DNA of 64,000 bases, from sequence record QB031383.1; one strand, given 5' to 3'. The notes beneath the pieces were generated by a model that was given only the letters and a program-made list of their open reading frames with translations, was not told the origin of the DNA and did not search any database. Position numbers and translations under genes: made by a program. This document shows positions 56,330-58,395 of this stretch, piece by piece; position 1 is the stretch's first letter; the number at the start of each line of letters is the position of its first letter. This stretch comes from a phage.

Positions 56330-56356
56330 TAGCAAAAAGCCTCCAATAAGGAGGCT
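56330..56356 (-). terminator. rho-independent terminator at the downstream end of the tRNA array
   Basis: Minus strand AGCCUCC-UUAUU-GGAGGCU followed by UUUUUGCU. Confidence 0.7.
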
Positions 56357-56471: not shown

Positions 56472-56550
56472 TGGAGGCGGGAATCGGATTTGAACCGATG
56501 ATCTCCAGCATATGAAACTGGCGAGGACGACCAGACTCCTCTATCCCGCT
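56472..56550 (-). tRNA. tRNA-Met (anticodon CAT)
   Basis: Hand-folded cloverleaf: T-arm ATCGG-TTCAAAT-CCGAT, anticodon loop TTCATAT, CCA encoded; 1-72 position appears mismatched (A/C). Confidence 0.55.
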
Positions 56551-56552
56551 AT

Positions 56553-56627
56553 TATGTATCCCGTGCTGGATTCGAACCAGCATCACAATAAGCTGTGGAA
56601 CTCTTATCCTGTAAGTCTAACGGGAAA
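56553..56627 (-). ncRNA. tRNA-like element, anticodon arm not resolvable (possible pseudo-tRNA)
   Basis: Canonical T-arm GCTGG-TTCGAAT-CCAGC and 6-bp acceptor, packed between two tRNAs, but no standard D/anticodon arms. Confidence 0.3.
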
Positions 56628-56628
56628 C

Positions 56629-56702
56629 TGGTTGTTTCGACAAGAATCGAACTTGTGTCTCACGATTATCAGTCGTGGGTTCTACCATTGAACTACGAAA
56701 CA
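56629..56702 (-). tRNA. tRNA-Ile (anticodon GAT)
   Basis: Acceptor TGTTTCG/CGAAACA, D-arm GTTC-AATGGTA-GAAC, anticodon stem CACGA/TCGTG with loop CTGATAA, T-loop TTCGATT, CCA encoded. Confidence 0.7.
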
Positions 56703-56708
56703 TTTGAT

Positions 56709-56785
56709 TGGTCGGAATTGCAGGATTCGAACCTGCGACCCTACGCTCCCAAAGCGTATGCTCTACCAAACTGAGCTAAATTCCG
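56709..56785 (-). tRNA. tRNA-Pro (anticodon TGG)
   Basis: Acceptor CGGAATT/AATTCCG, D-arm GCTC-AGTTTGGTA-GAGC, anticodon loop TTTGGGA, T-arm GCAGG-TTCGAAT-CCTGC, CCA encoded. Confidence 0.75.
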
Positions 56786-56790
56786 TTATA

Positions 56791-56866
56791 TGGCTGGTCT
56801 GTCTGGATTTGAACCAAACCTACGACAGTCAAAGTGTCGTGTGCTACCGGACTACACTACAAACCA
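56791..56866 (-). tRNA. tRNA-Gln (anticodon TTG)
   Basis: Acceptor with U1-A72, anticodon stem CGACA/TGTCG with loop CTTTGAC, T-loop TTCAAAT, discriminator G, CCA encoded. Confidence 0.7.
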
Positions 56867-56964
56867 ATAAATCATTTAATGAAGGGCAACCAGAAGAGGT
56901 GTGAGAGAAGGAGAAAACCATGAGTAAAAGAGAAAGTTTTCTGGCAACCCTTTATTAAATAATT

Positions 56965-57038
56965 TGGAGCGTTCTACGAGGATCGAACTCGTGCCGCCGA
57001 CTTGGAAGGACGGAATGCTACCGCTACACCAAGAACGC
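56965..57038 (-). tRNA. tRNA-Gly (anticodon TCC)
   Basis: Acceptor GCGTTCT/AGAACGC, anticodon loop CTTCCAA, T-arm ACGAG-TTCGATC-CTCGT, discriminator U, CCA encoded. Confidence 0.6.
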
Positions 57039-57049
57039 CCTACATCTTT

Positions 57050-57079
57050 ACTATACTACATTTTACTATTGGTTGTCAA
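57050..57079 (-). promoter_or_regulatory. promoter-like element (aCTATTGACAa, -10-like TATAGT) directly upstream of tRNA-Gly
   Basis: Minus strand TTGACA-18-TATAGT; one of four copies of the same -35-containing motif. Confidence 0.5.
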
Positions 57080-57352
57080 TAGTTTTATTGAGCGGGACAG
57101 TGACGAGTATCCCATTGGGTGACTAGCCCTACGTTCGGTAAGCTAACTTAAAATAATACAAAACCAAAGTCAAATATTATTCTTCGTTGCTGTCGATGGG
57201 AGAGCCGCTTCTTCTTTTGCCCCATCCAACCCTACTCCGGTCAAGTTTCAGGTAACTCTTTTTGTGATCAACACAATACTAAGAACACTGTCTTTCGAGC
57301 AGACCTTGTGCACAGGATACGACGATCAATCACAGTGCTCTTAATGTTGTGT

Positions 57353-57427
57353 TGGTGCTCCCACTCTGAATCGAACAGAGATCCACGGATTACAAAACCG
57401 TTGTAATAGCCATTATACTATAGGAGC
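57353..57427 (-). tRNA. tRNA-Thr (anticodon TGT)
   Basis: Acceptor GCTCCTA/TGGGAGC (one G-U), anticodon loop TTTGTAA, T-arm CTCTG-TTCGATT-CAGAG, CCA encoded. Confidence 0.6.
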
Positions 57428-57433
57428 AAAGCT

Positions 57434-57511
57434 GGGACTCGGCAGGATTCGATACCTGCAATTCCAGAAGCCTCTTGGCGACTGGGGGGTTTACCTTAAC
57501 TCTACAAGTCC
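57434..57511 (-). ncRNA. tRNA-like element with 8-nt T-loop and no recognisable anticodon arm (possible pseudo-tRNA)
   Basis: 7-bp acceptor GGACTTG/CGAGTCC and T-arm GCAGG-TATCGAAT-CCTGC; internal region forms a long imperfect hairpin instead. Confidence 0.3.
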
Positions 57512-57518
57512 ATAATTC

Positions 57519-57604
57519 TGGCGATGAGTATAGGATTTGAACCTATATCGTTCTTTCGAACACGGATTAACAGTCCGCCGCTTAAACCATTCAGCCAACT
57601 CATC
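57519..57604 (-). tRNA. tRNA-Asn (anticodon GTT) with an unusually long variable arm
   Basis: Perfect acceptor GATGAGT/ACTCATC, Asn-type anticodon arm GCGGA-CTGTTAA-TCCGT, discriminator G, CCA encoded; 15-nt variable region GTTC-GAAA-GAAC. Confidence 0.55.
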
Positions 57605-57610
57605 TTAATT

Positions 57611-57698
57611 TGGTGGTGAGTGATGGAGTCGAACCACCCGAATCGCAATGATAACAGATTTACAGTCTGCCCCGCTACCCCTACGGAATTAACTCACC
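57611..57698 (-). tRNA. tRNA-Tyr (anticodon GTA), type II
   Basis: Acceptor GGTGAGT/ACTCACC, anticodon arm GCAGA-CTGTAAA-TCTGT, long variable arm, T-loop TTCGACT, CCA encoded. Confidence 0.65.
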
Positions 57699-57828
57699 TA
57701 AATACTAATATTTAAATTCTTTTTAAAATAGCCAGTGTTCACACCACTAACTATGAGTTATCGGTAAAGTGGTTACCGCCACTTGCCGAAGATTTACTCT
57801 GCTAAAGTAAGCTATATTAAAAAGAACT

Positions 57829-57914
57829 TGGCGGTAGATGTAGGACTCGAACCTACACGCCGTTTCCGACTACAGTTTAGCAAACTGTCGTGGCTACCAT
57901 TTCACCAATCTACC
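57829..57914 (-). tRNA. tRNA-Ser (anticodon GCT), type II
   Basis: Acceptor GGTAGAT/ATCTACC, anticodon stem ACAGT/ACTGT with loop TTGCTAA, long variable arm, T-arm GTAGG-TTCGAGT-CCTAC, CCA encoded. Confidence 0.7.
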
Positions 57915-57918
57915 AATC

Positions 57919-58009
57919 TGGCGGAAGGAGGGAGAGTCGAACTCCCAAGGCTCTTTCAAGCTCGGCGGTTTTCAAGACCGTTTTCGTCGCCACGTCGATT
58001 TGCCCTTCC
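57919..58009 (-). tRNA. tRNA-Ser (anticodon TGA), type II
   Basis: Acceptor GGAAGGG/TCCTTCC, anticodon loop CTTGAAA, long variable arm, T-arm GGGAG-TTCGACT-CTCCC, CCA encoded; D-arm atypical. Confidence 0.55.
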
Positions 58010-58018
58010 ATACTTATA

Positions 58019-58047
58019 ATCTAACATAAAATAATGTTAGTTGTCAA
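58019..58047 (-). promoter_or_regulatory. promoter-like element (aCTATTGACAa, -10-like TTAGAT) upstream of tRNA-Ser
   Basis: Minus strand TTGACA-17-TTAGAT; shares the TATG-TTAG block with the 58605 copy. Confidence 0.5.
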
Positions 58048-58243
58048 TAGTTTTTTAAAACATTTTACCATGAATGGTGACTCCACCAACCCCCGTTCTC
58101 AACGAACGGTGCTCTTCGAGCATTTATGTCTTCTAATATAACCGTGGCCTTTGTTTATAATGTCTGACATACTTGCCTCATTCTCTGCCACCATGATCAG
58201 TAGTGGGTTCAAATCACTTGAGCTAATTCATGTTAAAATGTTC

Positions 58244-58318
58244 TGGTGTCTTTACAAGGAATCGAACCTTGACTAAGAGTTTAGAAGACTCCTGTGCTAT
58301 CCATTACACCATAAAGAC
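58244..58318 (-). tRNA. tRNA-Arg (anticodon TCT)
   Basis: Acceptor GTCTTTA/TAAAGAC, D-arm GTGT-AATGGATA-GCAC, anticodon loop CTTCTAA, T-arm CAAGG-TTCGATT-CCTTG, CCA encoded. Confidence 0.7.
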
Positions 58319-58320
58319 GT

Positions 58321-58395
58321 TGGTGGCCCTGGCTGGTTTCGATCCAGCTACCTATCGGTTATGAGCCGACAGCTCTCCCATTGAGCTACAGGGCC
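58321..58395 (-). tRNA. tRNA with CAT anticodon (Met or lysidine-type Ile2)
   Basis: Acceptor GGCCCTG/CAGGGCC, D-arm GCTC-AATGGGA-GAGC, anticodon loop CTCATAA, non-canonical T-loop ATCGAAA, CCA encoded. Confidence 0.6.

Follow-up and report, generated by a model that had tools for sequence, protein, structure and literature searches.

A class-II-like long variable arm on a phage tRNA-Asn and its conservation in a large, almost virus-only tRNA family

Long variable arms are confined by textbooks and reviews to the tRNAs for Leu, Ser, bacterial Tyr and Sec. Within the stretch of phage DNA analysed here (64,000 nucleotides, in the following referred to as the window) a tRNA gene with the anticodon GUU was noticed whose variable region appeared to form such an arm, which raises the questions whether the arm is a genuine part of the molecule, which amino acid the tRNA carries and how an asparagine tRNA came to possess it. 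The breach of the rule by a tRNA with a GUU anticodon turned out to be real, and phage tRNA-Asn forms a conserved exception to it: the gene and its fold, the conservation and covariation of the arm, the retention of Asn identity marks, the absence of those for Ser and the enrichment in viruses are documented below.

ARAGORN returned the coordinates at which the earlier note had placed a tRNA-Asn and assigned the gene to the minus strand (Table 1). Including the encoded CCA, the tRNA-Asn(GUU) comprises 86 nt (RNA GAUGAGUUGGCUGAAUGGUUUAAGCGGCGGACUGUUAAUCCGUGUUCGAAAGAACGAUAUAGGUUCAAAUCCUAUACUCAUCGCCA), and the mature molecule is presumably of this 86-nt length. The gene scores 62 bits against the Rfam model RF00005, for which the gathering score is 29, whereby the alignment extends over model positions 1-71 of 71 and no non-canonical stem pair is flagged. 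The same alignment assigns the extra 12-13 bases to the variable region, so that the covariance-model scoring recommended at the outset locates the additional nucleotides there and not elsewhere. ARAGORN, the MFE fold and Rfam agree on a cloverleaf in which the acceptor stem counts 7 bp, the anticodon and T stems count 5 bp each and the T-loop reads UUCAAAU, and the MFE fold of the 86-nt molecule combines this cloverleaf with the hairpin GUUC-GAAA-GAAC. Class II tRNAs are defined by a variable region of 10 nt or longer that forms a stem-loop (PMC7609411), a description which fits the 15-nt arm with its 4-bp stem and GAAA loop. The D arm consists of three Watson-Crick pairs (GCU/AGC) and an unpaired G13.A22, includes C11-G24 and is hence of class II type, its layout in the Rfam alignment being identical to that of the adjoining tRNA-Ser(GCU) of the same phage. 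The 19-nt anticodon arm CGGCGGACUGUUAAUCCGU equals that of E. coli tRNA-Asn, for which the reference sequence was confirmed at 100% identity in all but one of the 5426 complete E. coli genomes (5425), and includes the site U36AAUC↓C41 of the nuclease AriB. The proposed match to bacterial tRNA-Asn thus stands for the anticodon arm and the discriminator G but fails for the acceptor stem, which reads GAUGAGU/ACUCAUC with G1-C72 here as opposed to UCCUCUG/CAGAGGA with U1-A72 in E. coli.

Table 1. Position of the tRNA-Asn, of its structural parts and of the surrounding cluster within the window.
Feature	Position	Strand	Basis
tRNA-Asn(GUU), whole gene, class-II-like architecture, CCA encoded	57519..57604	-	ARAGORN, Rfam, MFE cloverleaf
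Acceptor stem, 5' strand GAUGAGU, nt 1-7; G1-C72, A2-U71, U3-A70	57598..57604	-	sequence, Rfam alignment
D arm GCUG-AAUGGUUU-AAGC, nt 10-25	57580..57595	-	Rfam alignment
Anticodon arm GCGGA-CUGUUAA-UCCGU, nt 27-43; anticodon GUU at 57569-57571	57562..57578	-	sequence, host comparison
Variable region, 15 nt, nt 44-58	57547..57561	-	Rfam, MFE, covariation, geometry
Variable-arm hairpin GUUC-GAAA-GAAC, 12 nt, 4-bp stem	57550-57561	-	
Three unpaired nt GAU, 3' of the variable-arm hairpin	57547-57549	-	
T arm AUAGG-UUCAAAU-CCUAU, nt 59-75	57530..57546	-	Rfam alignment
Acceptor stem, 3' strand ACUCAUC	57523-57529	-	sequence, ARAGORN
Discriminator G73	57522	-	sequence
Encoded CCA of tRNA-Asn	57519-57521	-	sequence, ARAGORN
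tRNA cluster, 12 tRNA-like genes	56472..58395	-	ARAGORN, Rfam; annotated alike in relatives
Terminator-like hairpin and T-run, directly 3' of the last cluster tRNA	56338..56356	-	consensus match only

A lone 4-bp hairpin is weak proof of structure, and it is the covariation among 32 homologues which argues that the arm is not a product of chance. These family members possess a 15-nt variable region, and over the segment that begins with the anticodon arm and runs into the T arm they align without gaps, the window sequence being row 1. For the variable-region structure tested, ((((....))))..., changes on both sides were identified at 4/4 arm pairs, the inner three of which are intact in 31-32 of the 32 homologues with 11-20 compensatory cells each. 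The observed arm covariation was reached by 0 of 500 shuffles, and pairing dropped from 96% to 31-43% when the arm partners were slid out of register. The variable-arm hairpin is supported as strongly as the T stem, and selection acts on the 4-bp, GAAA-capped arm as a structural element of the tRNA-Asn. The 15-nt variable region and its hairpin, first read from the letters only, are consequently borne out by Rfam alignment, MFE fold and covariation alike; the suggestion of an inserted element or a one-off has to be given up, as the arm is a conserved and covarying element of a family which hundreds of phages possess.

The gene resides in a tRNA cluster transcribed in the sequence Met, Arg, Ser(UGA)-like, Ser(GCU), Tyr, Asn, Thr, Gly, Gln, Pro, Ile, Met, for which ARAGORN counts 10 tRNAs and a relaxed Rfam threshold counts 12, adding Tyr and the Ser(UGA)-like gene. 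The tRNA-Tyr(GUA) (57611-57698, minus strand) lies 6 nt upstream of tRNA-Asn, is missed by ARAGORN, scores 39 bits with Rfam and has three additional nucleotides (auu) inserted between positions 9 and 10; some GenBank records label it tRNA-Pseudo or tRNA-OTHER. The Ser(UGA)-like gene (57923-58009, minus strand) has the anticodon loop CUUGAAA and matches solely the tRNA-Sec model, with 37.4 bits and hence below the gathering score of 47, and was named tRNA-Ser-TGA by tRNAscan-SE annotation in the relative ASO2A. Promoter-like sites were noted at 58634-58605 and 58047-58018, but their frequency does not exceed that in shuffled sequences, so that no promoter is claimed for the cluster. With 99.8% identity to Escherichia phage ECO340P2 and 98.9% identity to Escherichia phage vB_EcoM_ASO2A (Phapecoctavirus, Stephanstirmvirinae, ~150 kb) across the cluster, the window is that of a Phapecoctavirus-like coliphage, and an indel of ~89 nt between tRNA-Pro and tRNA-Gln (window 56786-56790 versus 1887-1979 of locus L001) separates this phage from its ASO2A-like relatives. 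The window has a GC content of 39.6%, and Asn accounts for 5.9% of the codons in long ORFs. A search for prophage copies of the tRNA-Asn yielded no match in the 5,426 complete E. coli genomes.

The tRNA-Asn annotation is already present in many Phapecoctavirus-like records, hence the gene as such was known and it is the architecture, the viral distribution and the scarcity in cells that seem to be new. A sensitive BLAST search with the 86-nt tRNA-Asn matched 716 phage records, 226 of them covering at least 80% of the query; exact (100%) copies were found in many relatives, and a T5-like homologue used as query was covered over at least 80% of its length by 587 phage records. The records from both queries span Stephanstirmvirinae, Vequintavirinae, Demerecviridae and Straboviridae, and altogether ~590 phage records of GenBank contain a long-arm tRNA-Asn gene, T5-like and T4-like phages among them. 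tRNA-Asn genes annotated with a length of 82-86 nt are found in Justusliebigvirus, in Mydovirus and Seunavirus (Vequintavirinae), in the T5-like Demerecviridae Epseptimavirus, Tequintavirus and Novosibvirus and in Roth01, an unclassified Klebsiella phage of ~166 kb. Additional matches over the full length come from 165-175-kb phages of Klebsiella, Enterobacter and Cronobacter, which on the grounds of name and size are taken to be T4-like. The Kuttervirus Maynard encodes an ordinary 75-nt tRNA-Asn, the 5' half of which is very similar to that of the window's tRNA-Asn. IMG/VR was scanned for an exact pattern, the Asn anticodon arm followed after 17-26 nt by GGTTC, which retrieved at least 120 loci; from these ARAGORN called at least 76 unique long tRNA-Asn, measuring 82-91 nt, with highly diverse acceptor stems and D arms, some residing on jumbo-phage contigs and many environments being represented. 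When the spacing was left open, the long share amounted to ~13% in an unbiased 120-locus IMG/VR sample (13 with at least 17 nt, 2 with 16 nt). The family is defined here by GUU, G73, a variable region of 12-19 nt with a 3-4-bp hairpin and mostly a tetraloop, and 3-4 unpaired 3' nt, and the window's tRNA-Asn conforms to all of this.

The picture in cells was obtained by scanning one genome per species, in total 185,579 bacterial and archaeal species, for the long-arm pattern. This returned 61 stretches, ~20 of which are long tRNA-Asn capable of forming a cloverleaf, most of them situated within dense arrays of 10-36 tRNAs per 8 kb. Chromosomal arrays with 23-36 tRNA genes within 8 kb were observed in Micromonospora and Verrucosispora (L135, L136, L145, L183), each of which holds a long-arm tRNA-Asn of 89-90 nt. 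Two kinds of cellular candidates were rejected, namely L189 from Azoarcus, which is an 11-nt tandem duplication, and those from Saprospiraceae/Bacteroidota, which are repeated 3'-half fragments with a palindromic insert beside an ordinary 75-nt tRNA-Asn. The latter tRNA-Asn fragments, from Saprospiraceae and other Bacteroidota (L133 4397-4437 and 4815-4855; L150 5498-5794; L142, L149, L176), have ATGCCGATAGCTATCGGCAT inserted into their variable region and might represent attachment sites that were duplicated. Long-arm tRNA-Asn is ~1000-fold enriched in viruses over cells and represents a large, conserved and almost virus-only family. A full-text literature search, which the older T5 sequencing papers lay outside of, yielded no paper that describes phage tRNA-Asn as having a long variable arm, and the unusual architecture, the wide viral spread and the near-absence from cells seem to have gone unremarked before. 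The nearest published remark is that the tRNA-Asn-GTT of phage Sf14 scores 'inconsistently' in isotype models, and long-arm phage tRNAs account for such flags from isotype-specific tRNA models.

Given the arm, the amino acid identity of the molecule had to be addressed. Asn identity in E. coli is conferred by the three anticodon bases and G73, and U1-A72 is a mark for the amidotransferase in bacteria which do without AsnRS (PMC9976931). In the window's tRNA-Asn the sequence determinants for AsnRS, i.e., G34 U35 U36 and G73, are present. Identity marks were compared within one common set of loci, which supplied 96 long and 104 short tRNA-Asn along with 124 tRNA-Ser and 71 tRNA-Tyr, whereby G73 was found in 88/96 long Asn, 90/104 short Asn, 77/124 Ser and 0/71 Tyr tRNAs, and U1:A72 or U1:G72 in 62/96, 81/104, 3/124 and 4/71, respectively. 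The Ser signature G2:C71 plus A3:U70 is carried by 100/124 Ser tRNAs, by 9/96 long and 9/104 short Asn tRNAs and by 11/71 Tyr tRNAs. G1-C72 and G2-C71 were described as 'absolutely conserved' in bacterial tRNA-Ser (PMC9976931); the window's tRNA-Asn has G1-C72 but A-U at 2:71 and so departs from this rule, and G2:C71 was found in 67/67 phage Ser tRNAs. The SerRS features that it does possess are its long variable arm as well as G73. The Tyr set of A73, U35 and the anticodon GUA is incomplete as well, since G73 and U36 occupy the respective positions. The earlier expectation of an altered synthetase recognition finds no support in these data: GUU and G73 are kept, the Ser signature is absent and G73 acts as antideterminant for both TyrRS and LeuRS (PMC9976931). 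From these marks, charging of the phage tRNA-Asn by the host AsnRS via GUU and G73 appears most likely.

The arm differs from that of tRNA-Ser also in geometry. In long Asn tRNAs it is Tyr-like, with a stem of 3-4 bp, usually a tetraloop and 3-4 unpaired 3' nt, as compared to tRNA-Ser, in which the stem comprises 5-7 bp and the hairpin is followed on its 3' side by 0-2 unpaired nt. Within the window phage, where both arms measure 15 nt, unpaired 5'/3' nt number 0/3 in tRNA-Asn and 1/2 in tRNA-Ser(GCU), the Asn hairpin being located one nt closer to the 5' side, and the window's tRNA-Asn does not exhibit the Ser-type arm geometry. Whole-body nearest-neighbour typing of the long Asn tRNAs gave a mixed answer, which became interpretable once the molecules, with anticodon arm and variable arm masked, were split by segment: the nearest relatives of acceptor stem and T arm are short Asn tRNAs, those of the D arm are Ser, Cys, Leu and Tyr tRNAs. 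With an Asn-like acceptor stem and T arm and a class II D arm, the molecule therefore represents a class II core with an Asn acceptor end. A chimeric nature, as had been considered, consequently applies in the evolutionary sense only, Asn-like acceptor and T arms being joined to a class-II-like D arm, and not in the sense of an isolated chimera. An origin from the adjoining tRNA-Tyr, the acceptor stem of which is near-identical in the window (GAUGAGU versus GGUGAGU), was rejected as a general origin; across 67 same-locus pairs the Asn/Tyr acceptor identity averages 4.7/14, as compared to 4.4/14 for unrelated pairs.

Taken together, the window probably encodes a functional, class-II-shaped phage tRNA with Asn identity which adds to Asn decoding, its arm being under selection and its relatives forming a widespread, nearly virus-only family. 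According to this proposal, the tRNA-Asn would be transcribed together with the rest of the tRNA cluster on the minus strand and the transcript matured to the 86-nt tRNA-Asn, whose CCA is genome-encoded. Host AsnRS would subsequently charge it through the GUU anticodon and G73, and the charged molecule would decode AAC and AAU as Asn. In the folded tRNA-Asn the variable arm is accompanied by a matching class-II-type D arm. The tRNA-Asn may thereby add Asn-decoding capacity for an AT-rich, Asn-heavy phage and may substitute for depleted host tRNA-Asn. The Asn demand of the phage accounts for the possession of a tRNA-Asn, not for the arm. As a class IIb enzyme AsnRS is expected to approach its tRNA from the variable-loop side, as in the AspRS complex, and the long arm might for this reason hinder charging.

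Several other readings have to be weighed against this proposal. That the gene is a decaying pseudogene, or that the additional bases are processed out of the transcript, might be suspected from its deviant cluster neighbours, i.e., the tRNA-Tyr with three inserted nt and the Ser(UGA)-like gene, whose bit score does not attain the Rfam gathering score, and from the cellular example L189, which is merely a tandem duplication of 11 nt. Such decay or processing is, however, hardly credible given a score of 62 bits with no mismatched stem pairs, 100% identity in many relatives and compensatory arm changes across families. No splicing route is known for an 11-12-nt hairpin in a tRNA variable loop. 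Moreover, the T5 member of the family is active in vivo (PMC12409363). Recoding or dual identity would mean that SerRS reads the arm together with G73 and that Ser, or a mixture of Ser and Asn, is inserted at AAC/AAU as by nev-tRNAs and allo-tRNAs. Ser identity was published to be independent of the anticodon and to rely on the variable arm and G73, the window's tRNA-Asn combines G73, G1-C72, C11-G24 and a long arm and thereby part of the E. coli SerRS recognition set, and its 15 nt equal the total arm length of the phage's own tRNA-Ser(GCU). We nevertheless consider this reading very improbable, as A2-U71 replaces the pair that is invariant in the phage Ser tRNAs, the Ser signature is equally rare (9%) in long and short Asn tRNAs, the arm combines a shorter stem with more unpaired 3' nt than Ser arms do, the tRNA-Asn-specific mark U1:A72 is retained in 65% of the long Asn tRNAs, and overexpression of T5 tRNA-Asn rescues cells and does not poison them. 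A structural legacy is the alternative to be taken more seriously, although we hold it to be somewhat less than an even chance: here an old phage lineage with a class II core and Asn identity would have spread among tRNA-cluster phages, the arm being kept for folding only. A median body identity of 0.84 from long to long tRNAs, as compared to 0.75 from long tRNAs to the best short Asn, agrees with such a lineage, merely 7 of 96 long Asn tRNAs being closer to a short form; likewise, the class-II-like D arm changes jointly with the variable arm in close long/short pairs and similar D arms recur in enterobacterial phage versions from four virus groups. Yet legacy leaves the ~1000-fold enrichment in viruses unexplained, and it fails to account for the observation that within viral loci Asn, Thr(UGU), Cys and Ile are affected, Lys and Arg have no long form and His and Gln almost none, as well as 11 loci which retain a long and a short tRNA-Asn side by side.

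A reason for the arm that would supplement the preferred proposal of a functional Asn tRNA, and not replace it, may be sought in phage defence. AriB, the nuclease of PARIS, attacks E. coli tRNA-Asn(GUU) as a secondary target and severs it between 40 and 41; in all, its targets are Thr(UGU), Lys(UUU) and Asn(GUU), with Lys(UUU) as the main one (PMC12409363). Overexpressed T5 tRNA-Asn, along with T5 tRNA-Lys and tRNA-Thr, helps to rescue PARIS toxicity, a rescue which needed overexpression and leaves the amino acid carried undefined; the tRNA-Asn of Bas34 is insufficient, this phage being PARIS-sensitive until T5 tRNA-Asn is supplied, whereby cleavage of the Bas34 tRNA-Asn was left possible by the authors (PMC12409363). 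The variable arm is not mentioned within that work, 'variable' occurring 0 times in PMC12409363. The rescue demonstrates activity of T5 tRNA-Asn in E. coli upon overexpression. Against this background the arm may be an adaptive shield which reshapes the tRNA body such that body-reading nucleases, e.g., AriB with its cut between 40 and 41, bind poorly whilst AsnRS, for which the anticodon and G73 alone count, still charges the molecule. The anticodon arm is host-identical including the AriB site, hence any escape from nucleases would come from the tRNA body and not from anticodon-arm substitutions of the T5 tRNA-Lys type; if the window's tRNA-Asn resists AriB-type nucleases, its resistance must lie there. 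In an AF3 model the AriB dimer reaches from its cut between 40 and 41 to positions 16-17 of the D loop, and cleavage did not return when the E. coli site was put back into T5 tRNA-Lys, meaning that body contacts matter. It further fits that E. coli tRNA-Asn is targeted by AriB and T5 tRNA-Asn contributes to rescue, that T5 tRNA-Thr(UGU), the counterpart of another AriB target, is likewise long-armed, that the family is strongly enriched in viruses and that many phage tRNA-Leu genes changed in the opposite direction, having lost the long arm. Difficulties arise from Bas34, which is PARIS-sensitive despite encoding a tRNA-Asn, from tRNA-Lys(UUU), of which 0 of 102 genes at viral loci are long although it is the main AriB target, from long Thr, Cys and Ile tRNAs that show no co-occurrence with long Asn, and from the occurrence of the family in phages of many environments where PARIS is not known to be of importance. 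The shield is therefore put forward tentatively, as a plausible but rather unlikely function.

In its widest form the idea would be that certain tRNAs are systematically moved by phages from one architectural class to the other, with an arm gained by Asn, Thr(UGU), Cys and Ile and lost by Leu, so that identity is kept, body-reading immune nucleases such as AriB are evaded and the arm of the window's tRNA-Asn is a resistance determinant; this generalization we regard as doubtful. Co-occurrence within the same phage of long Asn with other long-arm class I tRNAs or with short Leu was significant in no test. As to the individual tRNAs, T5 tRNA-Thr(UGU) (T5_ev212, L010 10026-10112) measures 87 nt and has the variable-arm hairpin GGA-GUAA-UCC, and 9/34 unique Thr(UGU) tRNAs from the loci first fetched are long. 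Phage tRNA-Leu genes without a long arm number 78 unique sequences, including the 77-nt genes of T5 (e.g., L010 4120-4196 and 8289-8365). In IMG/VR, tRNA-Ile(UAU) of 91-96 nt were observed with an insert of ~20 nt after the anticodon stem (L025 5224-5314, L030 1697-1792, L063 7444-7538), the insert containing a conserved motif of the AGAUUA, AGAUAA or AGAUUG type in 6 of the 7 listed. Long tRNA-Cys(GCA) (6/32 unique) and tRNA-Trp(CCA) possess GAAA-capped hairpins similar to the Asn arm (L057 345-428, L059 13818-13901, L064 4387-4473). Salmonella phage SalP219 has an annotated 87-nt tRNA-Lys(UUU) (L004 1354-1440) with the extra bases in the D region, for which ARAGORN makes no call.

Beyond the single locus, long-arm tRNA-Asn constitutes a natural test of the tolerance that AsnRS, EF-Tu, the ribosome and modification enzymes have for an extra arm, and it offers a ready scaffold for orthogonal tRNA design.

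Amongst the systems known, the tRNA-Asn of T5 (record T5_ev212, a T5 derivative) comes closest, as it shares GUU, G73, the encoded CCA, a GAAA-capped hairpin and three unpaired nt with that of the window and also resides in a tRNA cluster, T5-like forms being ~83% identical to the window's tRNA-Asn over the aligned part. It differs by its length of 83 nt and its 13-nt arm GUC-GAAA-GAC, as compared to 86 nt and 15 nt in the window, by its acceptor strand GGGUCGU (G2-C71) and by U28-A42 within the anticodon stem, which is host-identical in the window. E. coli tRNA-Asn (asnT/U/V/W) has the 19-nt anticodon arm, the anticodon and G73 in common with the phage molecule, and as GUU and G73 are shared, both present the same published AsnRS determinants; it measures, however, 76 nt, and where it has a variable loop of 5 nt, a D stem of 4 bp and U1-A72, the window's tRNA-Asn shows an arm of 15 nt, a D arm of class II type and G1-C72. 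With the bacterial class II tRNAs for Tyr, Ser and Leu it shares the stem-loop variable arm and the class-II-type D arm. Of these, tRNA-Tyr possesses the arm geometry closest to that of long Asn and an anticodon, GUA, that is one base away, but Tyr and Leu tRNAs carry A73 in place of G73, and the Ser features, i.e., G2-C71 with A3-U70, a longer arm and another register, are all lacking from the window's tRNA-Asn. Class II tRNAs with 'wrong' anticodons are known from nematodes, where these nev-tRNAs are associated with recoding. Like them, the bacterial allo-tRNAs resemble the window's tRNA-Asn in combining a long arm with the anticodon of an amino acid that normally has a class I tRNA, yet the allo-tRNAs show an 8/4 or 9/3 acceptor/T geometry and mismatched identity elements (PMC5389517, PMC7609411), whereas the geometry of the window's tRNA-Asn is the normal 7/5, which sets it apart from the allo-tRNAs. 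Both nev-tRNAs and allo-tRNAs carry identity elements for Leu, Ser or Ala and mistranslate, whereas in the window's tRNA-Asn the identity marks match the anticodon.
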